33,033 bases of DNA from a virus (taxonomy: Duplodnaviria; Caudoviricetes): the IMG/VR virus record IMGVR_UViG_3300042464_000672, positions 1 to 33,033 of that record; one strand, written 5' to 3'. A model generated the notes under the pieces. The model was not told the origin of the DNA and did not search any database. It worked only from the letters and a program-made list of their open reading frames with translations. Below, in pieces: positions 1 to 18,664 of the stretch. Each line of letters begins with the position of its first letter. Positions within the stretch are counted from its first letter, which is position 1. The translations under genes and the position numbers were made by a program.

Positions 1-223
1 CCAACGACGCTCTTGCAACACGGACGGCATGGTTCAACAAGTACGCCTTGTCGTCATGCCCGTCCTTCTGAATCTCTTTCAACTGGGTCAGCAGGCCACC
101 AAAGGCCTTGTCATGCCCGAACAGCTTCGCCTCATGTGTTGACATGGCCCGCGGTAGCGGCCCGTCATGAAGCACGAGGACGATCCTGCCGTCTGGCAGG
201 ACCTCGATCTGGGTTGTATCCAT
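1..223 (-). CDS. Hypothetical protein (partial, runs off the left edge)
   Basis: ATG at 223 overlaps the TAA of the MazG-like gene (TAATG). Frame MDTTQIEVLPDGRIVLVLHDG... stays open for 74 codons to the edge. Not in the ORF track because it has no stop. Confidence 0.7.
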   Translation of the reverse strand, partial: MDTTQIEVLPDGRIVLVLHDGPLPRAMSTHEAKLFGHDKAFGGLLTQLKEIQKDGHDDKAYLLNHAVRVARASL

Positions 224-813
224 TACACCTGCTCCTCTTTCACGAACACACCGTCTGGCCGGAGATACCCTTTCCGGTCCTTGATCTCGTTGTACGCCTG
301 TGCGACACACTCAGTGAGGTGGTCCGAGGCCTCAGCAGGACAGTACCCCTCCCCCGCGATCTGAGCGAGGTGGGACATCATCTTTGCGTTTATAGTCCAG
401 TAGTCACTACGTCCACCGACCGAAGATGCACCCAACATGACAAGGCACTTCTGCAGGGACTCAATCGGGTTATTCACTGACGAAGGGGTGATGTCCTCTG
501 GGGGTGAGTACACCACCTCAGTCAGCTTGGAGTAACACATGGCCCCGACAATCAGGGTTATGTACACATCCCCAATAGCGTCTATCTTCTCCCCAACATT
601 TTGGCAGAAGATCAAGTTCTCCATCATGTCCCCCAAGTCCAGATCGTCGTCATACTCCATGACCACAGACGCCTGGATCAACTCCATCACCTCCTCGGCT
701 GTTTTAATCGCTTGGGCGTAGGCAGTACTGTGCCTTATTATCCCACGATCTGCTGCCCAGATGATTATCGCGTCGTTCAACTCCGGTAATGTCATCGCTC
801 TTTCACAGGTCAT
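223..813 (-). CDS. MazG-like nucleotide pyrophosphohydrolase (phage NTP-PPase)
   Basis: Motifs WAADRGI, QAIKTAEEVMEL, DAIGDVYITL and ECVAQAYNEIKDRKG..DGVFVKE. SD AGGAGG lies 5 nt before ATG 813. Confidence 0.8.
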   Translation of the reverse strand: MTCERAMTLPELNDAIIIWAADRGIIRHSTAYAQAIKTAEEVMELIQASVVMEYDDDLDLGDMMENLIFCQNVGEKIDAIGDVYITLIVGAMCYSKLTEVVYSPPEDITPSSVNNPIESLQKCLVMLGASSVGGRSDYWTINAKMMSHLAQIAGEGYCPAEASDHLTECVAQAYNEIKDRKGYLRPDGVFVKEEQV

Positions 814-859
814 ACGCACCTCCTAACTGATAAAAAAGAAACAGATTGAGACAACAGCC

Positions 860-888
860 AGCATCTCAGTCCCAGCCGAACCCGTCAA
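860..888 (-). promoter_or_regulatory. Candidate sigma70-type promoter for the leftward operon
   Basis: Minus strand TTGACG-N17-GATGCT with an extended -10 TG, about 45 nt upstream of the MazG-like start. Confidence 0.4.
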
Positions 889-1058
889 TCTTAGTCTGCC
901 CGTGATCTTAGATTTTCCCGATTCTAATAAATGGGACATCGGCCCGGCGGGACTGACAAGAATTCTTCAGCAGTTGTCACCTGTACAGTGCTTTGACTGA
1001 CAAAAAGTGACAAAGCAGTCAAGTCTTGTCAATCTTCAATTTTCACCCTTGGACCCTC

Positions 1059-1088
1059 TTGACAGGGTTTTCGCATACAGGCTATACT
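1059..1088 (+). promoter_or_regulatory. Sigma70-type promoter
   Basis: TTGACA-N18-TATACT, near consensus. Confidence 0.55.
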
Positions 1089-1256
1089 GGAATTGCCTTG
1101 GTAATACCTGGCTTAACTTGCTTGACCTAGGCCATACCTGCCTTTACTTTGGTAATACAATTACTCGAAGAGTAATACTACCTGTAGTACTTGTAAAACC
1201 TGAATGACATTGATTAACCTGGTTTGACCTGGTTAAGCTATAATCTTAATATACCA

Positions 1257-1280
1257 TTACAGGCCGTATACGGCCTGTAA
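1257..1280. repeat. Perfect 24-bp palindrome TTACAGGCCGTATACGGCCTGTAA
   Basis: The two 12-bp arms are exact reverse complements with no loop. Confidence 0.95.
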
Positions 1281-1353
1281 AACCAGGTAAAACCCCGATT
1301 TGGGCGGAGGAGCCGCGGACGGCTCCCGCAAAAGACAAAATTAGATTGGGGTG

Positions 1354-1382
1354 TTGACAGACCTCCGGACTGCTGCAAAGAT
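1354..1382 (+). promoter_or_regulatory. Candidate promoter
   Basis: TTGACA-N17-AAAGAT with an extended -10 TG; the -10 is weak. Predicted start near 1389 coincides with the first hairpin of the structured leader. Confidence 0.4.
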
Positions 1383-1388
1383 TCCGCA

Positions 1389-1486
1389 AACGATGTGGCA
1401 GTCGTTAACCAGAAACATGTTGGGCTACGCCCGGCACAAAACCCTCCCCTTCGAACTGCCACTCGATCGGGAGGGTTTTTCTTTGT
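1389..1486 (+). ncRNA. Candidate structured leader / small RNA with kissing-loop potential
   Basis: Hairpins at 1389-1406, 1418-1436 and 1438-1479. GTGGCAGT (1395-1402) is the exact complement of ACTGCCAC (1455-1462). Confidence 0.45.
1438..1486 (+). terminator. Intrinsic terminator / attenuator upstream of the primase
   Basis: Inverted repeat AAAACCCTCCC...GGGAGGGTTTT running into a T-rich tract (TTTTTCTTTGTT). Confidence 0.6.
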
Positions 1487-1512
1487 TATCCCCCAGACAG
1501 ATCGATGATGGC

Positions 1513-3759
1513 ATGGACCCAGAACGCTTTCGTTTAGATTGCATCAGTACGGCTGCATACTTGTGCCAGCACGGCATTCGAGTTACGCACGCCACGTTTC
1601 GCACCAAGTCCCCGAAGCACAAATCCTGGAACGAGACGGCCACCAACAACATCCAGCAGTTGGTTCAAGGTCTCCCTGCAGGCCTGTTCAACCTGGGGAT
1701 GGTATTCGGCCCAACCTCTGGCGTTCTCGATATCGAGCCAGACACCCCCGAGGCGTACATCGACATCGAAGCTTTGATGAAGGCGAACGGGGTCAGGACC
1801 CTGTCTTACCGCTCCCGGAGAGGGCTCCACCGGATCTTCAAATGGGATCCCCGGCTTTCCCACCTTGGACCCAACCCCAAGACGGTCAATAAGCTGGAGT
1901 GCCGACTCGGGTCGGCAACCAGTTCGTTCTTCTCGGTATGCCCTCCCTCAGTCCACCCAGACACTGGTGAACACTACGAGTGGGTTCCGGGCTGTGCTCC
2001 TTGGGAGATTGCCCCGGCTGAGCTTCCACAGAACGTGGTTGACCACTTCCTCCTCAACGTGAAGAAGTCGGCGGACGGTGGAAGAACCCACGACCTCATT
2101 GCGGACGATGATGGGTACATGCCTGCCGATGGTGGTCGGCATGACTACCTGCTCAGTTTCAGTAAGAGCATGTACTGCGACTGGATGCTGCCGAAAGACC
2201 TGGCTGTAGACATGACCCGGATGGTGTCCCAACGCTCCGGATCCTATGACGAGCCGGGCCGCGGCGAAGTGGAACTGAAGAACCTGTTTAAAGGTCTGCA
2301 ACGCCCTAGCGATCCGGTGAAGGAGATGCAAGCCACGATCTCGATGGACAAGGTCAACGACTTGTCAGAGGTCATCTTCGAGAAGTACCGGGAGGAACAC
2401 AAGGATCCTCTTGCAGACATCCCGGATCACATCTTCCACCCGGTGATACAGAAGGCCTCGCTGAGTGCCCGAGGTTCGCAGATGCCACGCAACCTTTGGC
2501 TCATGTCCATCGTCTCTGCAGCAGCCGCAGCACTGGGCACAGCATGCATGTCGCGGGTCAGTCCGAACCACCCAGTGACAGGCAATCAGATATACTCATT
2601 TGGAGTTGGTGGGTCAGGGTCAGGTAAGAGTAGGACCCTCATGGCGGTCAACGCCCCCTTCGCATCCTCAGACTATGTGATGACAGACGCGACTCCAGAG
2701 GCCCTCACATCGAGCCTCGCCCGGATCCCTCGAGGAGTCATGTTGGAGTTCAGTGAGGGAAGAGACTTCTCCAAGATGCTTGGCCGGTACAACTCTCAGC
2801 CTGGACAGTCGGACAACAGCTTGTACCATCGAGCCTGGTCGGGAGACAGGACGAGGGTGCAACGGCAGAAGGGGGCATGCTGGATCGAGAGACCACACCT
2901 TGTCGTGTCGGCAGCGATCCAGAGAAACAACCTGAACCTGCTGCCTCAGAACGACCTTGTCGACGGTCTCGGCCAACGCATCATCGTGTACCCTGTAGGC
3001 AAAATACCAAAGAAGTCCAGGCCCGAGGCATTGGCCGAGCATGCCGCATTCATGGAACTGTGGTACGAAGTGCTTGGTCGTTTGCAGGAGGTCAAGGCCA
3101 ATCTCGGCATGGTGCCAATGGAGGACATGTTGGCAGGCCGAAACGTCGTTACGAAGCCACTCATCAACACCCTCGATGAAGAGGCAAGGGTCCTGTGGGA
3201 AGAGTATGCTGCTCTCAAGCGGTCGGATCAGGTGGAGGCTCAGTGGCCAGACGACGAGCATCCGTTTCGGTCAGACATTGTGCGGCATGCTGAGCAGGCA
3301 CTGAGGTTCGCCAACGTGCTGTGGATGCTTGACTGCGCGATCGACAGAGAGTTCTGGTATCACTGGAACATTGCTCAACAAGACCATGGCTTCATTCCGA
3401 AGGGGGTTATGCAACGAGCTATTGACTTGCAGGAGTACCTCTGGGCTCACAAGCAAAAGTACCTCGAGCCTCTGGTCGAAGCAGCCTTCGCAGCGATCTC
3501 GGGAGGACATATGCTTGACAAGTCGGAGAGTGTTCCGAAGAAGCTTGTCAAGTTCGTGGCAGAACGGAAACGCAGAGTCGAGCGATCGGCTGGGGAGACC
3601 TGGACACTCCGCGATTATTACAACACTCTCGGTATCAGGAAAAACGATGGGCAAATGGAAGTTGACTTGTTTACCCGGGAAGGACATGTAGCATCTGTCG
3701 GAGTACCTGAAGGCAAGAACGCCGAACGGTTTAAGTTTCTGGAATTGATAGGAGAGTAA
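1513..3759 (+). CDS. Bifunctional primase/polymerase (Prim-Pol) fused to a DUF3987/YfjI-like P-loop domain
   Basis: N-terminal NLGMVFGPTSGVLDIE, YRSRRGLHRIF and VCPPSVHPDTGEHYEW. Walker A GGSGSGKS, then DATPEAL..EFSEG. Start placed at ATG 1513 because the longer ORF (from 1351) runs through a terminator. Confidence 0.85.
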   Translation: MDPERFRLDCISTAAYLCQHGIRVTHATFRTKSPKHKSWNETATNNIQQLVQGLPAGLFNLGMVFGPTSGVLDIEPDTPEAYIDIEALMKANGVRTLSYRSRRGLHRIFKWDPRLSHLGPNPKTVNKLECRLGSATSSFFSVCPPSVHPDTGEHYEWVPGCAPWEIAPAELPQNVVDHFLLNVKKSADGGRTHDLIADDDGYMPADGGRHDYLLSFSKSMYCDWMLPKDLAVDMTRMVSQRSGSYDEPGRGEVELKNLFKGLQRPSDPVKEMQATISMDKVNDLSEVIFEKYREEHKDPLADIPDHIFHPVIQKASLSARGSQMPRNLWLMSIVSAAAAALGTACMSRVSPNHPVTGNQIYSFGVGGSGSGKSRTLMAVNAPFASSDYVMTDATPEALTSSLARIPRGVMLEFSEGRDFSKMLGRYNSQPGQSDNSLYHRAWSGDRTRVQRQKGACWIERPHLVVSAAIQRNNLNLLPQNDLVDGLGQRIIVYPVGKIPKKSRPEALAEHAAFMELWYEVLGRLQEVKANLGMVPMEDMLAGRNVVTKPLINTLDEEARVLWEEYAALKRSDQVEAQWPDDEHPFRSDIVRHAEQALRFANVLWMLDCAIDREFWYHWNIAQQDHGFIPKGVMQRAIDLQEYLWAHKQKYLEPLVEAAFAAISGGHMLDKSESVPKKLVKFVAERKRRVERSAGETWTLRDYYNTLGIRKNDGQMEVDLFTREGHVASVGVPEGKNAERFKFLELIGE

Positions 3760-3760
3760 T

Positions 3761-3949
3761 GTGACAAACATCTTACGGTGTATTCAAAACCTCGAAAGGC
3801 AGACGCCTCTCCCCCCTTCGAAAGAGGAGAGTGTTGTCCAAGGGACTATCACCCTTGACCTGAGGAAGGATCCCGACCCGTATGGCTATCACCGAATGTC
3901 GGTGGCCTACCGTCTTCGATGCATGGGTTGGCCGGAGGAGTTGTCGTGA
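3761..3949 (+). CDS. Hypothetical protein
   Basis: AGGAGA upstream; tightly packed; GTGA overlap with the next gene. Confidence 0.55.
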   Translation: MTNILRCIQNLERQTPLPPSKEESVVQGTITLDLRKDPDPYGYHRMSVAYRLRCMGWPEELS

Positions 3950-4164
3950 AGACGTGCAAGAAATGCCTGGAAGAGAAAGAGTTGAAGGAGTTCGGCCTCC
4001 TCAGGCGGAGCAGCGACGGGCTGTCAAACATTTGTGGGGAGTGCCGTCGTGAGTTGGATCGGAAACGCCGCCACACGATTGAGTTCCACAACCTGCCTCA
4101 CCAGAGACGTGTGTGGGGCGACCAGATGATGAAGCATTTGAGGATCAACGCTCGTGACTACTAG
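3946..4164 (+). CDS. Small zinc-finger protein (CxxC...CxxC)
   Basis: KTCKKC..KELKEF..SDGLSNICGECR, resembling the Zn finger seen N-terminal to phage endonucleases. GGAGG SD precedes GTG 3946. Confidence 0.7.
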   Translation: MKTCKKCLEEKELKEFGLLRRSSDGLSNICGECRRELDRKRRHTIEFHNLPHQRRVWGDQMMKHLRINARDY

Positions 4165-4351
4165 CGTGACCTTCTGCTTCGTCAACAACAAGCCAGCCAA
4201 CGTGCAGTTCATCTGGGACGACATTGGCCCCGGCTTACAGATCGTCTGGTGTGAGCAGGCAGACCTCGTTGGTCAAGTCGTACGGAGTGATGCCGGGCTG
4301 AAGGTGCCGGGGATGTTCAAAAGTTTAACTGAGTTGTTGAGTGGAGGTTGA
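4154..4351 (+). CDS. Hypothetical protein
   Basis: 65-aa ORF filling the gap in a packed operon. Confidence 0.55.
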   Translation: MTTSVTFCFVNNKPANVQFIWDDIGPGLQIVWCEQADLVGQVVRSDAGLKVPGMFKSLTELLSGG

Positions 4352-4352
4352 C

Positions 4353-4568
4353 ATGGCTGATTTACGGATTGATGACGACCGGGAGGAAGTAACCGATCTC
4401 GTTGAAAGGTACACCGGCGATCAGTGGGGATTGATCGAAGGAGAACTTGAGAGAGTATCCGAGGAAGTCAAGCTCACCCGTCTCTTACTTGCGAGGCTGG
4501 TTGATGCTTTGGCCGACAAGAACCTGCTCACCAGAGACGAACTGATAAAGATCATACGAGGGTATTGA
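4353..4568 (+). CDS. Hypothetical helical protein
   Basis: GGAGGT SD before ATG 4353; amphipathic C-terminus LLARLVDALADKNLLTRDEL. Confidence 0.65.
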   Translation: MADLRIDDDREEVTDLVERYTGDQWGLIEGELERVSEEVKLTRLLLARLVDALADKNLLTRDELIKIIRGY

Positions 4569-4570
4569 CG

Positions 4571-5503
4571 ATGAAGTTCCTCAGCGTATGCTCAGGCATA
4601 GAGGCAGTCTCTGTCGCTACAGCCAACCTTGGTTGGGAGGCAGTAGGGTTCAGCGAGATTGAGCCACTACCTTGCTCAGTACTGGCTGAACGGTTCTCAC
4701 ACGTTCCTAACTTTGGAAACATGGAAAACTTCGATGAGTGGAACGTGCCTGAATTTGACATCCTGGCTGGAGGTACACCTTGCCAGTCTTTTTCAATCGC
4801 GGGTTTGCGTGGAGGACTGCAAGACGAACGAGGCAACCTCGCCCTTGTCTACTGCCGAATTCTGCAAAAGTTTAGACCCAAGTGGTTCATGTGGGAAAAC
4901 GTCCCAGGTGTCTTGTCATCGGCAGGAGGACGGGACTTTGGTTCCATCCTCGGGGCGATGGTCGAACTCGGGTATGGGGTCGCTTACCGAGTTCTTGACG
5001 CTCAGTACTTTGGAGTACCCCAACGACGCCGTAGAGTCTTCATTGTTGGATGTCTTGGAGACTGGGCCAGTGCCGCAGAAGTTCTTTTTGAGCCCAACTG
5101 CCTGCGAGGGGATACTACGAAGGGAGAGAAAAAACAGATCGAGAGCGGGGAAATTGTCGGAACAGTTACGACTCGTACTGGAAACGCTCGCGACAACTAC
5201 AGTGCAGAAGAAGGCCACGCAGTAGTGTACGACGGCTCACCTCGATGGCTTACACCCATCGAGTGTGAACGGCTCCAAGGTTTTCCCGATAACTGGACTT
5301 TGGTAAACCACCGTAGCAAACCTGCCAAAGATGGGCCAAGATACAAGGCGATAGGAAACAGTATGGCTGTACCAGTCATACGTTGGATCTGCAAACGCAT
5401 TCAGGAGAAGCACAAGTGTCAGCATACATCTACGCCCGAGTTTCAACCTTCGAGCAGTTCCACTCCGGGTTCTCCATCGACAACCAATGCACGTCAGGTC
5501 TGA
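4571..5503 (+). CDS. DNA (cytosine-5)-methyltransferase
   Basis: Motif I SVCSGIE, motif IV GGTPCQSFS, motif VI ENVPG, motif VIII PQRRRRVF, motif IX RWLTPIECERLQGFP, motif X GNSMAVPV. Confidence 0.95.
   Translation: MKFLSVCSGIEAVSVATANLGWEAVGFSEIEPLPCSVLAERFSHVPNFGNMENFDEWNVPEFDILAGGTPCQSFSIAGLRGGLQDERGNLALVYCRILQKFRPKWFMWENVPGVLSSAGGRDFGSILGAMVELGYGVAYRVLDAQYFGVPQRRRRVFIVGCLGDWASAAEVLFEPNCLRGDTTKGEKKQIESGEIVGTVTTRTGNARDNYSAEEGHAVVYDGSPRWLTPIECERLQGFPDNWTLVNHRSKPAKDGPRYKAIGNSMAVPVIRWICKRIQEKHKCQHTSTPEFQPSSSSTPGSPSTTNARQV
4734..5225 (+). CDS. Nested alternative-frame ORF resembling the M.EcoHK31I beta polypeptide
   Basis: +1 frame wholly inside the methyltransferase, open 4659-5225. Contains SSGRWSNSGM, EYPNDAVESSLLDVLETG and FFLSPTACEGILRR, which I recall from beta-like proteins. 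Confidence 0.6.
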   Translation: MSGTCLNLTSWLEVHLASLFQSRVCVEDCKTNEATSPLSTAEFCKSLDPSGSCGKTSQVSCHRQEDGTLVPSSGRWSNSGMGSLTEFLTLSTLEYPNDAVESSLLDVLETGPVPQKFFLSPTACEGILRRERKNRSRAGKLSEQLRLVLETLATTTVQKKATQ

Positions 5504-6969
5504 CGTACGCCAAGAACAACTTATTGCTCCCCGGCTTGGCGACCAACTGTGGGCTGACCGGGGTGTTCATTGACGGGGGCAAGTCTGCCTACACGAAGAA
5601 GTTGTCACAACGCCCCGGCGGGCAGGCCTTGATGGCTGTACTGAAGCCTGGCGATACTGTCATCGCGACAGCAACCCATCGCCTGTTCCGCAAGATGTCA
5701 GACATGGTTACGACCATGGAGTACTGGGTCGACAACGGAATCTCTGTTGTCTTCACAGACTATCCGATGCTGTCGACCAACACAGCTAACGGTAGGGCCA
5801 TGCTTCGCATCTTCGCAGTGGTGGCGGAACTGAAGTCAGACCTCACTTCCGCCCGTGTGCGTGAGGCACGGATGCTCAGCAAGGATAAGCCGAAAGAGCC
5901 AAAGGCTGCACCAGTAGTTCATGCACCTATCGAGAACCCGACGAGTAAAGACATCGGCTCAGTGATGCAAGCTATCGCGGCTGACCGCGAGAGAAGCAAG
6001 TTCAGATTCACTGGTAAGGTGAGAGCCTACATCCGATGTTCGACCAAGGATCAGACGGTCGAGCAGCAACGTCTGTGTATCCTCAAGCAACTCCCGCAAG
6101 ACATGAAGGAATCCGAGATCGTCTGGTACGAGGATGAGGGTGCCAGTGCGTTCAAGACCAGCCTGTCAAAGCGTAAGGCCGGGGCAAAGATGTTGGACGA
6201 CCTCAAGGCAGGCGACATCGTTGTAGCGTGGAGGCCCGACCGCATCTTCAGATCGATGCTCGACATGGCACGCATGACCGAGGCGATCCACGCCAAAGGG
6301 TCATACCTCATGACAGTCGAAGGAGGCATCAAGACCGACACCCCGTTTGGTAAGACCGTGGTAAGTCTGTTGAGTCTGCTGGCTGAAGTAGAGTCTCAGG
6401 AGATCAGCCGATCGACCAAGCAGGGGCTGATGGTTGCGTTGGGAGTCAACCCTGCGGCACAGGCTGCGAGAGCACCAAAGATGTTGGGAGAGTGCAAAGA
6501 CCGAGCGGGGCAGAAGCACTTCTGCTTCAACCAGTTCTTCTCCAAGGCTGAACGATTCTCAATGCACATTCACCTGGTACTCACAGCCAAGCAGTATCGA
6601 GATCGACGTACCGCATGTCGTGTCATCTCTAACCAGTGGCTGAAGCGTAAAGGGTTCCCAAGCTTGACCGGCGAGACGGGCGACACTCTGGCGATGTACC
6701 AAGCCAAGGTGAAGAAGATGCAGGCAGTGGAGTTCAGCGAGAAACGCGACCGACTGCTCGACGTGCTGAAGAAGTACGGTAAGGGCACGTTGGTGATGTA
6801 CCCGTTGAACGTCGATACGATTGCACACGTCTTCCCCCGAATGGAGGAGTGGATCCGGGTTGCCAAACCAATCCGGGGACGACTGCACGACAAGAAAGGT
6901 TTGACAGCGATGGCGGCAACGTGCCGCAATCCGGAAGAAGCGGTTAGATTGATGGAGGTACTACGTTAG
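5416..6969 (+). CDS. Serine recombinase with two tandem resolvase catalytic domains
   Basis: Domain 1: YIYARVST..DGGKSA..RPG..GDTVI..HRLFR. Domain 2: AYIRCST..DEGASA..GDIVVAWRPDRIFR..EISRSTKQG. AGGAGA SD precedes GTG 5416. Confidence 0.9.
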   Translation: MSAYIYARVSTFEQFHSGFSIDNQCTSGLTYAKNNLLLPGLATNCGLTGVFIDGGKSAYTKKLSQRPGGQALMAVLKPGDTVIATATHRLFRKMSDMVTTMEYWVDNGISVVFTDYPMLSTNTANGRAMLRIFAVVAELKSDLTSARVREARMLSKDKPKEPKAAPVVHAPIENPTSKDIGSVMQAIAADRERSKFRFTGKVRAYIRCSTKDQTVEQQRLCILKQLPQDMKESEIVWYEDEGASAFKTSLSKRKAGAKMLDDLKAGDIVVAWRPDRIFRSMLDMARMTEAIHAKGSYLMTVEGGIKTDTPFGKTVVSLLSLLAEVESQEISRSTKQGLMVALGVNPAAQAARAPKMLGECKDRAGQKHFCFNQFFSKAERFSMHIHLVLTAKQYRDRRTACRVISNQWLKRKGFPSLTGETGDTLAMYQAKVKKMQAVEFSEKRDRLLDVLKKYGKGTLVMYPLNVDTIAHVFPRMEEWIRVAKPIRGRLHDKKGLTAMAATCRNPEEAVRLMEVLR

Positions 6970-7205
6970 CCCTGTTGTATCAGAGGGATCCACTTAATCA
7001 GTTCTTCCCGTACGACGTACAATCTACCCCCAATGCGAACGCCCCGGAGCCAGTGATGGCTTGCCGGGGCGTTTCTGTTTTTCAGGCCGCGGGTAATCCA
7101 CAACCGGACTGTATCATCGGTTACTTCAATGCCTATGCCGGACAGGAGGGCGACGACCTCTTTGGCCGACAAGTACTGGTTCATCTCGTCTGGGTTGAGA
7201 CTCAT
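6966..7205 (-). CDS. Excisionase-like / DUF1580-like winged-HTH protein
   Basis: YLSAKEV..TVRLWITRGL..LRGVRIGGRLYVVREEL. Convergent with the recombinase; the stop codons overlap. Confidence 0.75.
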   Translation of the reverse strand: MSLNPDEMNQYLSAKEVVALLSGIGIEVTDDTVRLWITRGLKNRNAPASHHWLRGVRIGGRLYVVREELIKWIPLIQQG

Positions 7206-7249
7206 CAGGGAAATCCGAAAGAAACGAAGAAACCTAAAGTGAGAGTTTT

Positions 7250-7265
7250 ATACTCAACAGAGTAT
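7250..7265. promoter_or_regulatory. Operator-like inverted repeat between divergent genes
   Basis: ATACTC-aaca-GAGTAT, overlapping a possible minus-strand -10 (TATAAA, 7247-7252). Confidence 0.35.
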
Positions 7266-7330
7266 TGCAAGTCCACTCCACTTCGATTCTCATAAGGGAG
7301 AATTGCTCACCCCAGACAAAAGGAACCTAC

Positions 7331-8386
7331 ATGAGTACACCGTTTTCGCCGGTCACCCCGGCAATGCCGTCGTTCGCTGACCTTCAAGCCCAGACGGGTC
7401 AGCAACCTAACCTTACACCGAACGCTCCGTCTGGGGGAGCCAACAGCCTTCCCGCTCCGGTGGCAACACCGAGCGGGCAAGGTTTTACTCCTCAGGCACA
7501 ACCAGCCCCTCCGGTCCAGCCACAAGAGTCGTATCTGACTCAGCTTGAACGGGCGGGCAAAGTTCCTGCGGGACAGTTCAGAACCGAGCGAGAGTTGATT
7601 GACGCTCTGTACTCAACTGCCGAGGACTTGGCGAACCGAGTTAACCCTGAGCCAGTGGCCAGACCTGCGGTCGAACCTCCGGCTCCTCAGGCACCAGCAG
7701 TCAACCAGGCTGACCTATCCAAAGCTGCGACGATGTTTCAGCAGCAAGGGTGGTTGGCGATGAACAACGGGCAGTGGGTTGCATCAAACCCGATTGCCCA
7801 AGCAGCAGCACAACAGCTTAACACAGCCATGCTTGAAGCACAGGCCCGTCAGGCTGAACTGGCAGACCCAACAGCATTCATTTCGAAGTACGGCCAACAG
7901 GCGATTGATAGCCGACTGACTCCGCTTCAGCAGGAACTTCAGCAGTTGCGACAGGAGACACAGGCTCTCCGGAACCAAGTTGCTGAGACCCTACCGCGAC
8001 CGGATAAACAGTTCGTCGATGCCAACAAGGACAAGCTGTTTACCGTCGATGCTGCAGGCAAGCAGATGCATACCCCTGTCGGAAAGCTTTACTCCCAAGC
8101 CTGGGATATGGCGGACAGGGCAGGGTACGATTACAACAAGATTCACGAGTACGCTCTGTCAGTAGTTCAGCCTTACCTTCAGACAACTCAAGCCCCTCCT
8201 GCTCCGCAGCCTCAACAGTCTTGGGTGCAGCAGGTTCAGCAAAGTCCTGTCACTGACCCTAGCTTTACGGCACCGGGCACAGTGTTTACCAACTCAGTCC
8301 CGCCCAGTGGTATCGGCATCCCTGTCGGTAATGATGGGTTTCCGACCTTCGGGTCACTTCAGGCTTTGGGAATCCAGAGCCGCTAA
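7331..8386 (+). CDS. Probable capsid scaffolding protein
   Basis: P/Q/A-rich disordered ends and a coiled coil (LQQELQQLRQETQALR). Directly upstream of the capsid gene. AAAGGA SD precedes ATG 7331. Confidence 0.65.
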   Translation: MSTPFSPVTPAMPSFADLQAQTGQQPNLTPNAPSGGANSLPAPVATPSGQGFTPQAQPAPPVQPQESYLTQLERAGKVPAGQFRTERELIDALYSTAEDLANRVNPEPVARPAVEPPAPQAPAVNQADLSKAATMFQQQGWLAMNNGQWVASNPIAQAAAQQLNTAMLEAQARQAELADPTAFISKYGQQAIDSRLTPLQQELQQLRQETQALRNQVAETLPRPDKQFVDANKDKLFTVDAAGKQMHTPVGKLYSQAWDMADRAGYDYNKIHEYALSVVQPYLQTTQAPPAPQPQQSWVQQVQQSPVTDPSFTAPGTVFTNSVPPSGIGIPVGNDGFPTFGSLQALGIQSR

Positions 8387-8400
8387 CACCGGAGTAGAAC

Positions 8401-9546
8401 ATGGCTCACAGTCTTGTGCCGTCCACGGTATCGGGTCACATCAACAGCGTACGTGACCTCGCCCCACGCTATTGGAAGGGAATCTCGGACCTCACCGTTC
8501 GAAACTTCCTGACCTTCTACAACCTCCGCAAGTGGGGTTCGTTGACGTTCAATGCCCGGTCTCACAGCCAGGTGTGGAACGCCCGCGTCAAGCAGCCAAC
8601 GATCCTACCTGCTGTCGACAACCAGCCGATTGAGTTCGTGAACTGGGACACCGATATTCAGTACTACATCGGTATCAAGGGATACCGTGGGTCTGACTTC
8701 CTGCCAGAGCAGGAGTACCTGCAGGCACAAGGTGCCCCGGAGCAGATCACCAATCGCTACGAACGCAAGTCTAAAGAGATCGCTCAGGCGACTCAGGAAC
8801 GCTTGTGTCATTCGTTCTGGAAAGACGGCAACGTCGCCGCCAACGCATATGACTTCACTGGGATTAAAACCCCGCTGAGCTATGCTGCTGGTACTTGTGG
8901 TGCTGCTGATCGAGTGGGTCTGCCTGACGGGTCATACGCGGGTCAGTCCTGCGTGCTGGGTAACCTTGGCGGAACCTGGTCATCCAACATGGCGACCAAG
9001 CCAAACGCATCACTCGCCAAGGACTGGCCGTTCGGTCAGGGCTCAAGCGAGTACGACGGCACGACTCCGCTGGTTGTCAACTACGCCTCAACAGCGTGGG
9101 GCACTGGTGCAACTGACTGGGCAACCAACGCGATTGAGGCTACGAGCTACGCTCAGACAGCCATGCTACATCGTGGCGGGCAGTCAATGGTTGGGGCTCC
9201 ATGCCAGGTCGTAATGGCCTCCGAAATGTTCACCGAGTTCAAGAACTCGTTCCGTGAAAACAACCGTCAGATCATGCCGTTCAAGGACGGTGACCTGGGT
9301 TACCCAGGCGAGACTCTGATGGTCGACGGCATGGTCTACTCAATGGACTATGCAATCCCCGCCGGTGAAGCCTACATGTACTTGCCACAGTACACAGAGG
9401 CCTTCTTCCTGCACAATGACATCTACGGTGTCATGGGTCCTGAGTACAGCATCCCGCACGTCGGATACCTGTACTACATCAGCACCTACGGCAACTTCAA
9501 GTTCCTGCCGAAGTACCTGTGTCGCTTCGTGTCAGAGACTGCGTGA
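8401..9546 (+). CDS. Major capsid protein
   Basis: 381 aa; sits after the scaffold; capsid-like segments FWKDG..DFTGI and LMVDGMVYSMDYAIPAGEAY; GGAG SD. Confidence 0.8.
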   Translation: MAHSLVPSTVSGHINSVRDLAPRYWKGISDLTVRNFLTFYNLRKWGSLTFNARSHSQVWNARVKQPTILPAVDNQPIEFVNWDTDIQYYIGIKGYRGSDFLPEQEYLQAQGAPEQITNRYERKSKEIAQATQERLCHSFWKDGNVAANAYDFTGIKTPLSYAAGTCGAADRVGLPDGSYAGQSCVLGNLGGTWSSNMATKPNASLAKDWPFGQGSSEYDGTTPLVVNYASTAWGTGATDWATNAIEATSYAQTAMLHRGGQSMVGAPCQVVMASEMFTEFKNSFRENNRQIMPFKDGDLGYPGETLMVDGMVYSMDYAIPAGEAYMYLPQYTEAFFLHNDIYGVMGPEYSIPHVGYLYYISTYGNFKFLPKYLCRFVSETA

Positions 9547-9564
9547 TAAACCCGAGGCCGCTCT

Positions 9565-9588
9565 AGCCCGGCACTTCGGTGCCGGGCT
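9565..9588 (+). terminator. Stable cUUCGg hairpin after the capsid gene (mRNA stabiliser or leaky terminator)
   Basis: AGCCCGGCAC-TTCG-GTGCCGGGCT; the U-tract is displaced by about 13 nt. Confidence 0.55.
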
Positions 9589-9625
9589 CCTCTCCTGAAT
9601 CTTTTTCTCCAATGAGGTAATACTT

Positions 9626-10150
9626 ATGACGATCACGAACCAGGCCCGCCTCGGGTCATACAACGTCGTCTCTGACGACAGCATGCTTGGCCAGATCGCG
9701 ATGTTCCAAGATCAGGACATGGTTGATCCAAACGCTCCGGTCATCAACTCCGGCACCCCTGTCTACGCCATCATGGTGAAGGCAGACGTTGGTGGAGTTG
9801 TGACTCCGAGCCTGGGTTACACTTACAAGTCCGGCTACCTCGGCAAGCGGGTCGGAGCACTCTCCGGTGCAAACGCTATCTGTGACGGTATCGCGGACCC
9901 ATGGGTGTCCGGTACGATTCCAGATGGGGCTTACTTCTGGCTGATCATTCAAGGCCCTTGCGAATTGAAGATCGGTGCTGGCGACATCACTGCAAACGCA
10001 GTGGTTCAGACTCTGGCAAACGGTCTCTTCGGAACAGGCACTGCCGGAACGAACCCGATCGGACACTGTGGTAAGGCCAACGAAGCCGCAACCTCTGGCA
10101 ACTTCGCCCGATGTTACTTCACGAATCCGTTCTCAGCCGTCAAACCCTGA
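9626..10150 (+). CDS. Probable capsid cement/decoration protein
   Basis: Gly/Ala-rich 174-aa protein right after the capsid gene; IPDGAYFWLIIQGP motif. Confidence 0.6.
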   Translation: MTITNQARLGSYNVVSDDSMLGQIAMFQDQDMVDPNAPVINSGTPVYAIMVKADVGGVVTPSLGYTYKSGYLGKRVGALSGANAICDGIADPWVSGTIPDGAYFWLIIQGPCELKIGAGDITANAVVQTLANGLFGTGTAGTNPIGHCGKANEAATSGNFARCYFTNPFSAVKP

Positions 10151-10186
10151 TCCCAGTAATGGGTAAGAAAGGTGGTGATCCCATCT

Positions 10187-10303
10187 ATGGCCGATCAACT
10201 TCCTTGCCAGCCTCCTGCTGGTATTCATTCTCAGTCCACAGCACAGGTTGTCCACGCAGGCAACCCCATCCAAGTCGTAGCAGTGCCAAACACTCAGCGA
10301 TGA
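10187..10303 (+). CDS. 38-aa microprotein MADQLPCQPPAGIHSQSTAQVVHAGNPIQVVAVPNTQR
   Basis: Preceded by AGAAAGGTGGTGATCC (10166-10181), a 15/16 match to the extended anti-SD complement, and followed by a terminator. Below the ORF-track length cut-off. Confidence 0.6.
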   Translation: MADQLPCQPPAGIHSQSTAQVVHAGNPIQVVAVPNTQR

Positions 10304-10324
10304 TTTGGCAATCATGACCAACTC

Positions 10325-10360
10325 AGGGCAGGCAGGTTAAACTGCCTGCCCTTTTTCTTT
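10325..10360 (+). terminator. Rho-independent terminator
   Basis: AGGGCAGGCAG-gttaaa-CTGCCTGCCCT followed by TTTTCTTT. Confidence 0.85.
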
Positions 10361-10370
10361 GGAGCACAAC

Positions 10371-11501
10371 ATGGCGTCTCTCATGGACATACTGGCGGGT
10401 GCGGGCAACCTACTGGATCTTCCCGGAAGTTCTTTGAGGGATATACTATCGGGGCGTGACCCGTTCGACCAATGGGCGACCCCATTCTCGGATGGCAACA
10501 GAGCAACAGGTCGAGATGTGTTGGAGCCGTTCCTCGGGGTCAACGAAGAGACCGGCATGTCGGGTTGGGGGGACAACCCGATGGAAGGGTTCAAAGACAT
10601 CGCCGGGTTCGGGGCAGAGATGCTGCTTGACCCGTTGAACCTCGTACCGCTGGGGGCAGTGGGCAAAGCTTTGAAAGGCCGGAAGGCGGCACGACAGGCC
10701 AACGCAGCGATGATTGCGGAGCGGGGCGGCAAGTATTCCATGGTGAACCCGAGGATGCTGGCAGAAGAGATCCCAGAGGCGGCAAGACCGCAGGGACTGC
10801 TGGGGTACTCAGGTCCGTCTTTGAAAACATTGGAGTACGATGACCTTGCGAAGTATGACCCGAGTTACCAAACAAACACTTGGGTGGATAAGAACGCTTC
10901 TGGATCCTTGGACAGTGGCTTGGCCTCACCAGATGATGTTCCTTATCCGAACACATACTTGGTAAAGTCCACCCACTACCCTTCGGCAAGCAACACGTAC
11001 CGGTCGATGAACCCCGAATCCTTTATCGGGGACAATGTGACCATGCCCATGTTCGGGGCGTACTCTGGACTAAATCCAGGGCACGCCGCGTACCGAGCAG
11101 CCGCAAACAACATGGATGAAACTCTCGGACGGGTTGAGGTTCTTCGGCAGATGGAGCCAAGCACCGCTGAAGGTTTTGAGATGATAACCAGGACTAATGA
11201 AAGGGGGTACAACCGGTATTTGCCCGCCCGGAGGATGAACAACATGTGGAACGAAGCTTCGGACATGTACTCTGTGCCTCACAGACAACAAGTGGCTCCT
11301 GCAGACGTGTGGAGTAACATGGACCAAGGCGGTCCGCCAACCAGAGAGGCGGGATACGCAGGGCCTTTCGTACGACCAGATAACCTCATTCCCAACAACC
11401 CAATGCGACTCCAGTCGGAGCCGAGCATGTTCCCCGCCGCAGCCTCAGGGGCAGTCTACAACGCCTTGCAAACCTTCAACCGGCACGGCGGCATCCAGTG
11501 A
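10371..11501 (+). CDS. Hypothetical, probably virion/internal protein; N-terminus paralogous to ORF 30843
   Basis: GGAG SD before ATG 10371. GNLLDLPGSS..GFGAEMLLDP is shared with ORF 30843. Confidence 0.75.
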   Translation: MASLMDILAGAGNLLDLPGSSLRDILSGRDPFDQWATPFSDGNRATGRDVLEPFLGVNEETGMSGWGDNPMEGFKDIAGFGAEMLLDPLNLVPLGAVGKALKGRKAARQANAAMIAERGGKYSMVNPRMLAEEIPEAARPQGLLGYSGPSLKTLEYDDLAKYDPSYQTNTWVDKNASGSLDSGLASPDDVPYPNTYLVKSTHYPSASNTYRSMNPESFIGDNVTMPMFGAYSGLNPGHAAYRAAANNMDETLGRVEVLRQMEPSTAEGFEMITRTNERGYNRYLPARRMNNMWNEASDMYSVPHRQQVAPADVWSNMDQGGPPTREAGYAGPFVRPDNLIPNNPMRLQSEPSMFPAAASGAVYNALQTFNRHGGIQ

Positions 11502-12124
11502 CAGGTCTAGTCAACTTCCCCGGCAAGGTTGTGTGCCCAGCATGTAACCTGCCGGTTCTCCCAGAACACATACTACCCAGAGGTCTGTGTATGTCATGCG
11601 ACGATGATGCAAAGGTAGCGGGGACGATGGCTGTTATGGCCAGCAAAGTCCCGCAGCGAGGATTCAAAGAGGCACTGGCCGAAGTCAAGAAGGCTGGTCG
11701 GCCACTCACGCTTGACATTGCCGAAGCGGCGATGGATGAGTTAGGTGGGGCCGTTGAGCTTGGCAAGATGATGGCACAGGACCTCAAGAAACTCCGGGGG
11801 GATCACCTGCCGCCCGAGTTGAAGGAGTTTCATGACACCGACTTCAAGACCGTCAAAGGCTTATACGAAGCGATCATCCGGCTAACCTCTGAACGAGACA
11901 AACTGGTAGGAGAAGTCGGAGATCCGCTTGACGGCATCTCTGAGGTTGACCTGATGGCGATTGCCAGCCAAGCCGCCATGCTGCGTATAGAAGGCGATGC
12001 GGAGTTCCGCAAGCAGTTGCTTGCTGAGATCACCAAGTTCGATCCCAACGCTGTCGTAGAGGCTGCAGGAGAAGCCCTCAACATTATCGAAGCGGGACCG
12101 AGAGTCGAGGTGATTGATGTCTGA
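11498..12124 (+). CDS. Probable terminase small subunit (N-terminal CxxC..CxxC ribbon)
   Basis: Helical 208-aa protein overlapping the start of the large terminase; CPAC/CMSC. Call is positional. Confidence 0.55.
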   Translation: MTGLVNFPGKVVCPACNLPVLPEHILPRGLCMSCDDDAKVAGTMAVMASKVPQRGFKEALAEVKKAGRPLTLDIAEAAMDELGGAVELGKMMAQDLKKLRGDHLPPELKEFHDTDFKTVKGLYEAIIRLTSERDKLVGEVGDPLDGISEVDLMAIASQAAMLRIEGDAEFRKQLLAEITKFDPNAVVEAAGEALNIIEAGPRVEVIDV

Positions 12125-13886
12125 TATAGCCGACCGTATCCGAGCATCACTGACGCACCGGCGTGAACTCCAACAGGGCCTTGCTGCAGCAGCCAAGGTT
12201 GCCAAGCAGAAGCTCAACGCACTAGACATGTTCCGTCCGACCGAGTACCAGGAAGCGGTTGTCAAGTGTGACGCATCCGAGATCCTCGTCCAAGGGGGTA
12301 CTCGCTCCGGCAAGTCCACCATCGTTGCCGTGATGATCGCAGCCTACCTCCTCAACAAGCCGATCACGTTCGCAGATGGAACGAAGCACTACGTCCGCGA
12401 GCAAGGATGGCAGGGCAGACCTGTTACGGTGTGGCTCATCGGTCTTCAACTTAACCACATCGGCCAGACGATCTACCGACTGTTGTGCCGCCCCGGTGCG
12501 TTCGACATGGTACGGGATAAGAAGACCGGACTGTGGCGAGCTTGGCAACCGGGTCGCATCCCTGGCGACGAAGACATACCTGTTGATGAACGTAAGCCTG
12601 CACCACCGCTGATCCCTCCTTCAGAGATTGCTACCGAGTCTTGGGACAACAAGGCCAAGCACGAGTTCGCAAGTCTCACAATGAGGGACGGCTCGTGGGT
12701 GTATGCCTACGCATCGAGCGGTGCAGTGAAACGCGGCGACCCCGTCAACCGCATATGGATCGACGAAGAGATCGAGAACTCCGAGCACTACCCTGAATGG
12801 CAGAGCCGTCTGTCTGACCGCAAGGGGAGAATCTACTGGACCTCTTGGCCGAACATGAAGACCCCCGCGTTGATCGCACTGTATCGACGCTGTGTTGCTC
12901 AACGTGACGAGGTCGAACGTGGGGTCAGGACCAAGGCCGACGTGGTCAACTTCAAGTTCCGCGGATCCGACTCACCCTTCGTCGATGATGAAGAAAAGAG
13001 GAAGCGTGCTGAAGGTTGGACGGAGGAGCAACTCCGTGCCCGCGATCACGGGGACTTCGTCATGGACACGATCCAGGCGTACCCCGAGTTCAACGTGAAG
13101 TACCACTGTGTTGACTACGGGCCGAACAATCCTCTGAACGACAAAGTCACAGAGGCGATGCGTAAGCTGAACTGGAACGTGCCGCACGACTGGTGCGTCG
13201 ACCTGATCCTTGACCCCGGTACAACCCGTCCGGCTCTGCTCTGGGTAGCGATCCCGACAGAAGAGTATTGGGATGAAGGGGAGCCCTACCACATCATCTT
13301 CAGGGAGATGGCAGTCCCCAATATCGACGCCGCGGCGATGGGTAAACGAGCCAAGGCTGCGGATCCCGGCAGACGGTATTCCCGGTTCATTGGTGACAGA
13401 AAAGCTGGGGATCAGACGCCGATGGGGTTTTCTTGGGACGTGTTTGAGCAATACTCTCGGGAGTTCCGCAAGGCGGGGTTGAAATGTCAATTAACAGGTG
13501 ATATGTTTCTCAGAGGCGAGACAGTATGGGTAACACGTTCCATGAAACTGCGGGCACTCATGCGGTCCAGAAACTGCGGTAGGCCCCGGCTCAGGGTCGT
13601 ACCCCACATGTGTCCGACGTTGGTTAAACAACTTGAGACAGTCGTCAAACAGGTTGCGAAGGAGGCAGTACTCGATAAGTTGGCACCAGGGCAGGTCCAT
13701 GACGTTCTTGACACGGCAGAATACTACGCCGGGTTCGAACCGAAATTCCTTGCACCTCCTCGGGGACCAGCGATAATCGACCCTGGCCAAAGCATGTTTG
13801 ACGAAGACCAGAAGTTCTTGAACGGCATATTCAAGCTGAACAAGAAACAAGACGCCAACGGACCGATAGTCTTAGGCGTTCCCTAA
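12117..13886 (+). CDS. terL: Terminase large subunit
   Basis: PTEYQ, Walker A GGTRSGKST, Walker B RIWIDEE, nuclease LILDPG and HDVLDTAEY. Confidence 0.92.
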   Translation: MSDIADRIRASLTHRRELQQGLAAAAKVAKQKLNALDMFRPTEYQEAVVKCDASEILVQGGTRSGKSTIVAVMIAAYLLNKPITFADGTKHYVREQGWQGRPVTVWLIGLQLNHIGQTIYRLLCRPGAFDMVRDKKTGLWRAWQPGRIPGDEDIPVDERKPAPPLIPPSEIATESWDNKAKHEFASLTMRDGSWVYAYASSGAVKRGDPVNRIWIDEEIENSEHYPEWQSRLSDRKGRIYWTSWPNMKTPALIALYRRCVAQRDEVERGVRTKADVVNFKFRGSDSPFVDDEEKRKRAEGWTEEQLRARDHGDFVMDTIQAYPEFNVKYHCVDYGPNNPLNDKVTEAMRKLNWNVPHDWCVDLILDPGTTRPALLWVAIPTEEYWDEGEPYHIIFREMAVPNIDAAAMGKRAKAADPGRRYSRFIGDRKAGDQTPMGFSWDVFEQYSREFRKAGLKCQLTGDMFLRGETVWVTRSMKLRALMRSRNCGRPRLRVVPHMCPTLVKQLETVVKQVAKEAVLDKLAPGQVHDVLDTAEYYAGFEPKFLAPPRGPAIIDPGQSMFDEDQKFLNGIFKLNKKQDANGPIVLGVP

Positions 13887-13907
13887 CCCCAGGCCGGAGT
13901 TCCCCCA

Positions 13908-14210
13908 GTGAAGCAGTCAGACCTTATCAGACAATTCATCATCGAAGATCAGCCCATCGTCATCGCTCTTGGTGATGTGGTGTGGTTGTTCAACGAGAAC
14001 CAGCTTGACACCCTGCCTCACGTAGCGACAGTCACTGCGTTTGGCGAAGATAACATGGTCGATCTCACGTACAACGCTGTTGTCGGAAGTCGGCTTGTCC
14101 CGGTGCAGGGCGTGTGCCTTGTCGGGGATGAACGGTTGAAGAACGCCAACTACCGCAAACGCGGCTCGTGGATCCCACGAGGTGCGTTCTCAGTCCTTAA
14201 CCTGAAGTAG
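13908..14210 (+). CDS. Hypothetical protein between terminase and portal
   Basis: GGAG SD before GTG; 100-aa beta-rich ORF. Confidence 0.7.
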   Translation: MKQSDLIRQFIIEDQPIVIALGDVVWLFNENQLDTLPHVATVTAFGEDNMVDLTYNAVVGSRLVPVQGVCLVGDERLKNANYRKRGSWIPRGAFSVLNLK

Positions 14211-14217
14211 GTCCGTG

Positions 14218-16386: not shown

Positions 16387-17093
16387 TGGCTAATCCGAGT
16401 TTGGACTTGATTGAAAAAGTTGAGGGGGAGTTGGGCCTGACTAACCGATTCAAAACCATGCGTGAGAACCTTGAGTACGACGCGGTCGTACAGGCAGGCC
16501 CTGCGGCTATCGCAGCCTTTGATAAGATGATCGCCAAAGGTGAGTCCGTGTCCATGGCGGCTCAGTTCGCCACCCGTCGACCGCCCAGCGGCGGCATGAA
16601 CGACCGAGTCATCCAGAGCAATCACCCGAGTGTTACTGAGCAGTTCAAAGGATGCCCAGCAATGCTCGCCCTGTACCGAAAGAACTACCGAGCACACACC
16701 GGCGAGAACCTCCCTGAGGACGCGGTTGTGTACCGGGGCCTGGCGAAATTCCCAGGGGACCCCGGTTGTATTGTCACCCACAAGCAGAGCCTCTCCGACG
16801 TGAAGAAAATCATGAAGGAGCGGAACGAACAGATTGAGGGTGACTGGGAGAACCATCCAGTGTCGGAAGCACCACAGCCGCAGGTGGTCCGCATGAATGA
16901 GATGGTCATGGCACGATACCTGTCCGAGTACCGGGCAGAGGAAGAGTTTGCAAACCTTGACGAACGGGAACTGCGAGAACTCATCATCGACAATCACACC
17001 AAGGTCGTGACAGCCGACGATGCGATGAACGCCCCGACGAGTATTGAGCAAGTCAACCAGGAAGTCTTTGGAGGTGAACAGTGCATACGGTAA
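16386..17093 (+). CDS. Hypothetical protein (head module)
   Basis: 235-aa ORF coupled to the portal stop. Confidence 0.7.
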   Translation: MANPSLDLIEKVEGELGLTNRFKTMRENLEYDAVVQAGPAAIAAFDKMIAKGESVSMAAQFATRRPPSGGMNDRVIQSNHPSVTEQFKGCPAMLALYRKNYRAHTGENLPEDAVVYRGLAKFPGDPGCIVTHKQSLSDVKKIMKERNEQIEGDWENHPVSEAPQPQVVRMNEMVMARYLSEYRAEEEFANLDERELRELIIDNHTKVVTADDAMNAPTSIEQVNQEVFGGEQCIR

Positions 17094-17296
17094 TCGCTCC
17101 TGCAGAACGGGCAGTCCTTGAAGAAAAACTCCGCACGGTCTTAGGTGGTGGTGCCGCCACAACGGCACTGCTGAAACTACTTGATGCGGTGAATGAGTCC
17201 TTGGCCCCCTACACCGAAGTGGTGCCCATCGCAGACCTCGACGAAGTCACCCCCGAAGTCGCCCCCGAAGTCCAGGTAATCGAAAGTTCACCATGA
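17081..17296 (+). CDS. Hypothetical protein
   Basis: GGAGGT SD before GTG; ATGA overlap with the next gene. Confidence 0.6.
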   Translation: MHTVIAPAERAVLEEKLRTVLGGGAATTALLKLLDAVNESLAPYTEVVPIADLDEVTPEVAPEVQVIESSP

Positions 17297-18450: not shown

Positions 18451-18664
18451 GCTAGCGTCAACAGACGACCTGATCAAAGAACTGCTCTGCAGGTTCGATG
18501 CCGCAGTGTTTACCGGCACAAAGCTGATGTCCGAGAAACAAGGATCTAGCGAGGTGTTTTGGAGGGGAGACTTTTTACCCCGCCTCGGTCTGGCCGACTT
18601 TGCGAAGCAGGTCATGTTTCAGGAATACCAACTCATAGAAGACGATTCAGATGGCGAACCCTGA
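18431..18664 (+). CDS. Hypothetical protein
   Basis: DLELASTDDLIKELLCRFD; start chosen to minimise overlap. Confidence 0.55.
   Translation: MSGQDLELASTDDLIKELLCRFDAAVFTGTKLMSEKQGSSEVFWRGDFLPRLGLADFAKQVMFQEYQLIEDDSDGEP

Follow-up and report, generated by a model that had tools for sequence, protein, structure and literature searches.

Why would a tailed phage encode a site-specific recombinase with two catalytic domains in a single chain, and what could such an enzyme do? The question is raised by a 517-residue open reading frame (ORF) in the IMG/VR virus record IMGVR_UViG_3300042464_000672 (Duplodnaviria; Caudoviricetes), of which positions 1 to 33,033 are referred to here as the window. Serine recombinases are described, in the available parts of two accounts (PMC6188088, PMC9943657), as dimers or tetramers of subunits that each carry one catalytic domain. 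No published description of a layout with two resolvase domains was found in the literature searched, subscription journals being largely outside its reach. In this study, we show that the double-domain architecture is real, old, selected and widespread. We give a probability of roughly 40% to the reading that the protein is a single-chain pseudo-dimer serine recombinase acting on the phage's own genome.

Two catalytic domains in one reading frame

The sequence-only reading of this DNA had claimed one ORF with two complete resolvase domains joined by a K/P/A-rich linker, and had proposed a profile search for two PF00239 matches in one protein. The translated gene has no internal stop, and each half separately matches PF00239 across nearly the entire model (residues 3–158 for the first half), far above the cut-off of 23.3 bits (scores in Table 1). 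The two halves are 30% identical to each other (E 5e-13). The motifs lie where that reading had placed them, with YARVS encoded from 5431, YIRCS from 6028, HRLFR at residues 88–92 and DRIFR at residues 275–279. The linker can be seen in the sequence and coincides with the only stretch of the full-length structural model, residues 158–178, in which the predicted local distance difference test (pLDDT) score falls below 50. Domain 1 aligns with the catalytic domain of TP901-1 at a VIA Z of 17.0 and a root-mean-square deviation (rmsd) of 2.4 over 132 residues. Contigs from four sequencing runs span the gene completely or for the most part, with no gaps; three of these runs possibly represent the source sample, and the fourth (X6, not flagged as source) spans 5422–6913 with six substitutions. 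The two-domain ORF is not an assembly artefact.

Both halves also carry a complete set of active-site residues. For Tn3 resolvase, the available part of the study by Olorunniji and Stark (PMC2794168) gives Y6, R8, S10, D36, R68 and R71 as essential, and D67, E118, R119 and R125 as less so. The equivalents of the six are Y6, R8, S10, D53, R89 and R92 in domain 1 and Y205, R207, S209, D240, R276 and R279 in domain 2, whose register was set by alignment to gamma-delta resolvase. The histidine that domain 1 has at the D67 position of the Tn3 and gamma-delta enzymes (H88) affects a residue that is non-essential in Tn3 resolvase.

The same architecture recurs across a large family. When 1.84 billion 50%-cluster representatives were scanned and the best 150 matches taken, 147 had the double layout, and all of the 96 relatives checked in Pfam carry two Resolvase stretches and no further family above cut-off. 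Two alignments were built, a close set of the query plus 46 full-length sequences from 50 word-index matches (omitting the query itself, one partial and two single-domain sequences) and a wide set of the query plus 118 of the best 150, from which 32 seemingly N-terminally cut or short sequences were dropped, a choice that favours complete motifs. All six essential residues are present in both domains of every close homologue (47/47) and of 97 of the 119 wide homologues, or 105 if D-to-E exchange is allowed, and none of the 119 lacks the equivalents of R8, S10 and R68 in either domain. Ratios of nonsynonymous to synonymous substitution rates (dN/dS) in six close pairs were 0.01–0.06 for domain 1 and 0.00–0.05 for domain 2, and 0.07–0.20 in two distant pairs. 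Both domains are, on the evidence of these alignments and rates, intact and under strong purifying selection across the family. Neither a stop or frameshift between the domains nor a domain degenerate across homologues, either of which the sequence-only reading had taken as grounds for abandoning its claim, was seen among these matches, alignments and gap-free contigs. No record among GenBank phages and PLSDB plasmids covers 80% of the recombinase protein.

Pairing, tail and ancestry of the domains

One position suggests how the two domains may meet. In resolvase, the E118 side chains of both subunits touch across the dimer axis, according to the available part of PMC2794168. With the register taken from half-versus-half and gamma-delta alignments, glutamate is nearly universal at this position in single-domain proteins (68 of 69) and second domains (117 of 119; E326 in the window protein, encoded at 6391–6393) and is found in just 27 of 119 first domains, the window protein having K140 there (5833–5835). 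All 47 close homologues have a lysine or arginine in domain 1 opposite a glutamate in domain 2. Such an asymmetry at a self-pairing position is what pairing of domain 1 with domain 2 predicts, and it is equally compatible with pairing within one chain or between two chains. Of the covalent pseudo-heterodimer proposed from the sequence, the intact and selected domains stand and the complementary charges fit, while the dimer of fusions and the asymmetric sites, also proposed there, are still predictions. Inter-domain covariation over 163 sequences was uninformative, invariant columns dominating the signal. In the 119 proteins, the R125 equivalent of domain 1 and the Y6 equivalent of domain 2 are always 46 or more residues apart (median 53), and the linker between the domains is net basic in 88% of cases.

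Domain 1 comes without a DNA-binding domain, and the tail behind domain 2 is likely the only one in the chain. The earlier description of this tail as about 150 residues without a match was right as to Pfam, in which nothing is found at E ≤ 10 and thus no helix-turn-helix (HTH), and short as to length, which is about 172 residues in the window protein (family median 159). Neither PF07508 nor the Zn-ribbon PF13408 was matched by the window protein or by the 96 relatives scanned, and no cysteine stands in an invariant or near-invariant column. A profile of 103 distant-member tails did match PF07508-type domains at 93% probability over 49 columns, in the first half of that domain. The references for this comparison were fetched large and mid-size recombinases, five of them confirmed in Pfam; 20 column-shuffled controls gave at most 0.2%, and a smaller reference set gave 52%. 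The tail thus likely derives from a PF07508-type domain, a link that the profiles show for distant members only.

Structural comparison adds little on the tail. Modelled alone it has a pLDDT of 75 and a predicted template modelling score (pTM) of 0.66; Foldseek returned nothing at E ≤ 0.001, and a wide VIA search gave a top Z of 3.5 among 48,161 chains, which is evidence for neither a known fold nor a new one. An alignment of the full model to two serine-integrase chains over residues 192–513 was unusable (rmsd about 8), and the ESM Atlas scores for the tail (0.80 at most, and 0.79 for a PF07508 cluster) lie within chance.

Phylogenetic analysis with FastTree placed all 238 domains of the 119 wide homologues in one clade relative to 64 single-domain proteins, chosen from 144 distinct ones found by pattern scans (support 0.997). 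Their nearest outgroup is a group of eight mid-size proteins. First domains fall into one clade in 111 of 119 cases (0.98), and in all 119 (0.87) when five phage single-domain proteins are added; the single-domain L204 then places among the second domains. Most simply, these trees would mean that a mid-size recombinase long ago duplicated its catalytic domain once, domain 1 being the copy that was added. L204 (1905–3011) is one of three single-domain relatives that occupy the same genomic position and have an N-terminal extension in place of domain 1, of about 100 residues in L204, Cys-rich in L284 (4093–5184) and coiled-coil-like in L289 (2853–3908).

Winged-helix neighbour, spacer and head module

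The recombinase gene lies between a methyltransferase gene and a small convergent gene, ahead of the head genes (Table 1), in a record that also encodes a Prim-Pol primase-helicase.

Table 1. Features of the recombinase locus and the adjoining head module, in window coordinates
Feature	Position	Strand	Remarks
C5 DNA methyltransferase, in a variable slot	4565..5503	+	88-nt overlap with start of recombinase
Double-domain serine recombinase gene, 517 residues	5416..6969	+	GTG start, TAG stop; AGGAG upstream at 5403-5407
Catalytic domain 1 with helix E (residues 1-158)	5416..5889	+	PF00239, 94.3 bits
Linker (residues ~153-198)	5872..6009	+	basic Pro/Lys-rich part, then short predicted helix
Catalytic domain 2 with helix E (residues 199-345)	6010..6450	+	PF00239, 98.9 bits
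C-terminal domain (residues 346-517)	6451..6966	+	basic, mostly helical; net charge +17 from residue 340 onward
Excisionase/BldC-type winged-helix gene, 79 residues (HTH_17/DUF1580-like)	6966..7205	-	convergent with recombinase, divergent from head operon
Conserved spacer before head operon	7206..7330	.	three direct repeats related to AAACCGAA, 9-10-bp spacing, 7211-7237
Scaffold-like gene	7331-8386	+	'scaffold' by position and composition only
Major capsid protein	8401-9546	+	NF033394, E 3e-7
Terminase	12114-13886		PHROGs terL, E 5e-12
Portal	14215-16386		PHROGs portal, E 1e-8

The stops of the recombinase and winged-helix genes overlap by 4 nt. The label 'DUF1580-like' that this neighbour had received is fair, by the matches of its relatives: the window protein alone gives a weak HTH_17 match (E 0.94) and none to DUF1580, while among 16 aligned relatives nine match HTH_17 and three DUF1580 at E ≤ 0.05, one matches a PHROG excisionase, and in the ESM Atlas a cluster in which DUF1580 makes up 32% scores 0.91. 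Its remaining profile matches, not significant alone, are to RppC (E 0.01), to 6AMK (0.21), which we take to be BldC, and to 4J2N Gp37 (0.37), presumably a phage Xis. From the range of the DUF1580 family one might guess at a host in Planctomycetota.

Over about 100 bp the 125-nt spacer aligns gap-free in nine loci. Besides the direct repeats it holds TTGCAA (7265), TTCTCAT (7287), CCCCAG (7310) and AGGA; the repeat motif occurs once per genome in three complete relatives (G002, G003 and G005), and the strict pattern missed a fourth, G001. A strict sigma-70 scan of 5000–7500, spacer included, found no site. BldC, as described in the available part of PMC5859096, binds direct repeats head to tail, and the spacer offers BldC-like direct repeats beside a protein with weak matches to the BldC/Xis/RppC winged-helix proteins. 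The spacer is likely the promoter of the head operon with a tandem operator, and it could be a candidate recombination site too. The 79-residue protein likely binds these repeats and regulates the head operon, and it may or may not act in recombination as well. In G004 (L012:11948–12913) the scaffold gene is preceded by an inserted HNH gene, which comes with a second copy of the repeat-plus-TTGCA motif.

The sequence-only reading had cast the winged-helix protein as the directionality factor of the recombinase. This idea is unproven because the HTH gene tracks the head-gene spacer more closely than it tracks the recombinase: it is kept in L280 without a recombinase within 7 kb, it is separated from the recombinase by more than 150 nt in 10 of 22 distinct loci, and it faces the conserved spacer. 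A head-gene regulator fits the protein at least as well, and the directionality role is unsupported so far.

Linkage to the head genes is close. A recombinase-anchored survey of 36 loci, 24 of them distinct (23 double-domain, one single-domain), answered the earlier proposal to look for homologues with the same layout and neighbour: a capsid gene follows downstream in 24/24 (23/23 double), 22 of the 23 double loci have a detectable winged-helix gene, and gene order and orientation around the spacer are identical in all 23. From the capsid side, 47 loci represent 31 distinct phages, 22 with enough upstream DNA; of these, 18 have the double form and two a single-domain recombinase on the opposite strand. 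Five complete relatives (G001–G005, 65–68 kb) have exactly two PF00239 matches each, with no tyrosine integrase and no other resolvase. No PF00589 match exceeded the cut-off in 10 records; a weak one in G008 was rejected, since it falls within the scaffold gene. G007 lacks homologues of the polymerase, single-stranded DNA-binding protein, helicase and primase of G001–G005 and keeps the recombinase, HTH, scaffold, capsid, terminase and portal genes. The recombinase travels with the head module, as both G007 and the capsid-anchored survey keep this linkage. Single-domain serine recombinases of 220–262 residues also adjoin terminase-like or portal genes on three other viral contigs (L211:5458–6246, L225:473–1135 and L208:9959–10699; terminase calls by eye), which suggests that serine recombinases are more widely linked to head genes.

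The capsid and portal proteins of the phage group have no match among 50,697 GenBank phage records. All 24 sequencing runs listed as holding the phage are lake or freshwater samples, 13 of them with half or more of the sampled words, and none of the listed runs is an RNA dataset. G002 carries its own polymerase, single-stranded DNA-binding protein and helicase, and terminal repeats occur in three relatives. The two ends of G007, a complete-looking record, form an imperfect terminal repeat (1–1133 versus 68956–70085, 78% alike over about 1.1 kb).

Further features were observed around these genes. At the variable slot (4348–5416) a variant contig joins 4347 to 5417 without the methyltransferase, and G002 has a different methyltransferase there. 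G002 33603–34616 (L189:13603–14616) is a conserved helical ORF with homologues in G001 and G003–G005, sigma-factor-like by eye and without Pfam or PHROG match, near which three records start or end. In the early regions of G001–G005, small early genes are interspersed with a 60–90-nt hairpin repeat whose loop is short; each genome has several dispersed copies (in G002, L189, at 26145–26237, 29104–29191, 31371–31454 and 31980–32067). The repeat resembles T4 early stem-loops or T7 RNase III sites. In the window, 28586–28748 holds three 54–55-nt tandem copies, 98–100% alike, within an 874-residue ORF (28202–30826), and at 25347–28045 a glycosyltransferase-FkbM methyltransferase fusion and then a second methyltransferase follow tail-like genes.

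A proposed single-chain pseudo-dimer and its rivals

In the mechanism that we favour, the two active sites of one chain would pair like two resolvase subunits, and two chains would form a four-site complex. Both serines, S10 and S209, are very probably catalytic. Domain 1 would probably pair with domain 2 at the helix-E dimer interface, so that K140 meets E326 where a homodimer would place E118 against E118. With a slighter leaning, we expect that only the domain-2 half has a folded DNA-reading domain and that the basic linker is what holds the domain-1 half on DNA, which would make the site asymmetric. Two chains would then synapse two sites and swap strands; a linker no shorter than 46 residues would leave them slack to rotate. 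Tentatively, the role would be upkeep of the phage genome, by circularising terminally redundant DNA or resolving multimers, rather than integration. Cre of phage P1 performs both of these tasks. The analogy with Cre-loxP is functional only: Cre is a tyrosine recombinase that acts as a homotetramer on a known site, and there is no homology. With less assurance still, the family may be a natural single-chain class, in which two specialised, charge-matched domains supply both subunits of the dimer and only one arm of an asymmetric site is read; two tethered chains would then swap strands even with the tether lying across the swivel.

Several observations weigh against this reading. Strand exchange by serine recombinases proceeds in a tetramer with a 180-degree rotation, as the available part of PMC9943657 describes, and a linker joining dimer partners would cross the rotation interface and could hinder exchange. 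The K/R–E pair is found in only 48 of the 119 wide homologues, and 26 have E–E. The full-length model has a pTM of 0.43, so that it is confident inside the domains and leaves their arrangement unfixed. Tails from the window protein's own clade scored 0.2–0.3% against the PF07508-type references and 1% against the distant tails, so the PF07508 link of the window protein rests on shared position and ancestry. The equivalent of R71 is lost from domain 2 in seven of 119 proteins, and a search for shorter forms gave one match among 2584 candidates at E ≤ 1e-15, P0204, a near-identical recombinase start that diverges after residue ~43, ends at 65 residues and is present on four contigs. The gene is dispensable in some phages, since two of the 22 capsid-anchored loci have no recombinase upstream of the capsid gene. 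No repeat pair stood out as res or lox sites in the window and the five complete relatives, although short imperfect sites may be missed. Finally, this is the sole site-specific recombinase found and it stands beside an Xis-like gene, which fits an integrase equally well.

That integrase, with the winged-helix protein as its directionality factor and an attP site in or near the spacer between the HTH and scaffold genes, ranks a close second after the pseudo-dimer; one DNA-reading domain per chain would loosen the demand on the host site. It gains from the absence of any other site-specific recombinase in the five complete relatives and of PF00589 in the 10 records, from the PF07508-type tails of the nearest single-domain relatives, from the single relative among 16 that matches a PHROG excisionase, and from L284, whose single-domain form is encoded immediately after an HTH-like gene of the same orientation, as in a xis-int pair. 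It has to contend with an HTH gene that is kept without a recombinase and often lies apart from it, with a spacer motif duplicated along with the inserted HNH gene, as expected of a promoter, and with 38 scanned ORFs of G002 among which no repressor or partition gene was named. Directionality factors of serine integrases bind the Zn-ribbon/coiled-coil part, and this part is absent here. A search for prophages covered 23 of 64 parts of a genome collection (best 80 of 375 matches) and 8 of 64 parts of metagenomes (best 80 of 367): in these parts no double-domain ORF occurred in L029–L183 and no attachment (att) site or prophage was seen. Five metagenome loci (L024–L028) are phage-like.

The rotation problem keeps a different geometry in play, in which the linker joins co-rotating subunits and one chain makes up half of the swivel; the two tails bind both arms of a symmetric donor and the tail-less first domains capture a second duplex in a transposase-like manner, asking little of its sequence. 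No tether would then cross the rotating interface (mechanism as in the available part of PMC9943657), and a first domain without DNA-binding domain behind a mostly net basic linker suits such a capture. The geometry would nevertheless require dimers of first domains, in which K140 would face K140 in 47/47 close homologues, and the gene position is fixed, with no scattered insertion in the loci read; we regard it as improbable. More doubtful again is a single chain that works by itself on one duplex and, without partner exchange, relaxes DNA or processes ends at a specific site during replication or packaging. In its favour, both serines that a staggered double-strand cut needs are present in one chain, and the gene is linked to the head module; against it, characterised small serine recombinases become active only as tetramers in the available part of PMC9943657, and these phages have their own terminase.

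A DNA invertase or switch, flipping a tail-fibre cassette or a late promoter, has slightly poorer prospects than even that enzyme. 'DNA invertase' is the highest PHROG label of the recombinase, and a 23-nt inverted pair encloses 851 nt in L001. Against this, self-comparison of the five complete relatives showed no inverted repeat pair wider apart than a local hairpin, and order and orientation are the same in all 23 double loci. The att junctions or inversions that the sequence-only reading had suggested looking for were not seen: contigs over window 1–20000 and L001 1–6000 contain no strand-change joint, although contigs drop rare forms. An assembly artefact is refuted, and a chance fusion or a dead, merely structural domain, for which the truncated P0204 and the seven R71 losses might speak, is most improbable in view of the kept essential residues (47/47), the two domains in 147 of the best 150 matches, the gap-free contigs and the low dN/dS.

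Two further stretches deserve mention. The non-coding window 831–1350, between divergent MazG and primase genes, contains palindromes and short motifs shared with relatives, and is a candidate origin or recombination site. The L001 pair, upstream of the window (2899–2921 and 3773–3795), consists of inverted arms with a perfect 12-bp core, and contigs of other phages join these arm motifs differently. A 35-nt loose end at 17242–17276 was dropped, as it lies within a coding repeat.

Among known enzymes, the small serine recombinases (Tn3, gamma-delta, Gin, Hin, Sin) share the catalytic fold, here present twice (VIA Z 14–16 to 5cy2/1gdt; phmmer E 1e-9 to 1e-10), together with the six essential residues and the long helix E. 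They have one catalytic domain and a small C-terminal HTH in about 190 residues, whereas this protein has 517 residues, two domains and a ~170-residue tail, E118 is replaced in domain 1, and no res or inversion sites were found. Large serine recombinases (Bxb1, phiC31, TP901-1) are likewise phage-borne, as this enzyme is with its Xis-like neighbour; together with the mid-size PF07508 proteins they are the group that its outgroup position and distant-member tails recall. Here, in contrast, the Zn-ribbon/coiled-coil is missing, the catalytic domain is doubled, no att sites were seen and the gene is placed before the head genes; the NCBIfam XisF/Ccr score is far under cut-off (62 versus 375). IS607-family TnpA likewise has an unusual domain order, and the available part of PMC6188088 attributes to it asymmetric sites and catalytic subunits that act where DNA binding is weak. 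TnpA places an N-terminal winged helix before one catalytic domain, whereas here a gene apart encodes the winged helix, the recombinase enters its catalytic domain at residue 3 and NF033518 scores 19 bits against a cut-off of 110. The double-domain enzyme would work like a serine recombinase, but its layout is none of those that define the small, large and IS607 classes.

With two differently specialised active sites per chain, each strand cut becomes separately mutable in a natural enzyme, and the family can show whether subunits rotate while covalently tethered; it also offers a natural scaffold on which recombinases for asymmetric sites could be built. If true, the reading as a natural single-chain class would make these proteins the counterpart of engineered obligate-heterodimer recombinases and would directly test what freedom the rotation needs. 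The gene is near the core of a broad, uncultured group of aquatic phages, and its recombination site would reveal how their genomes are kept or integrated.

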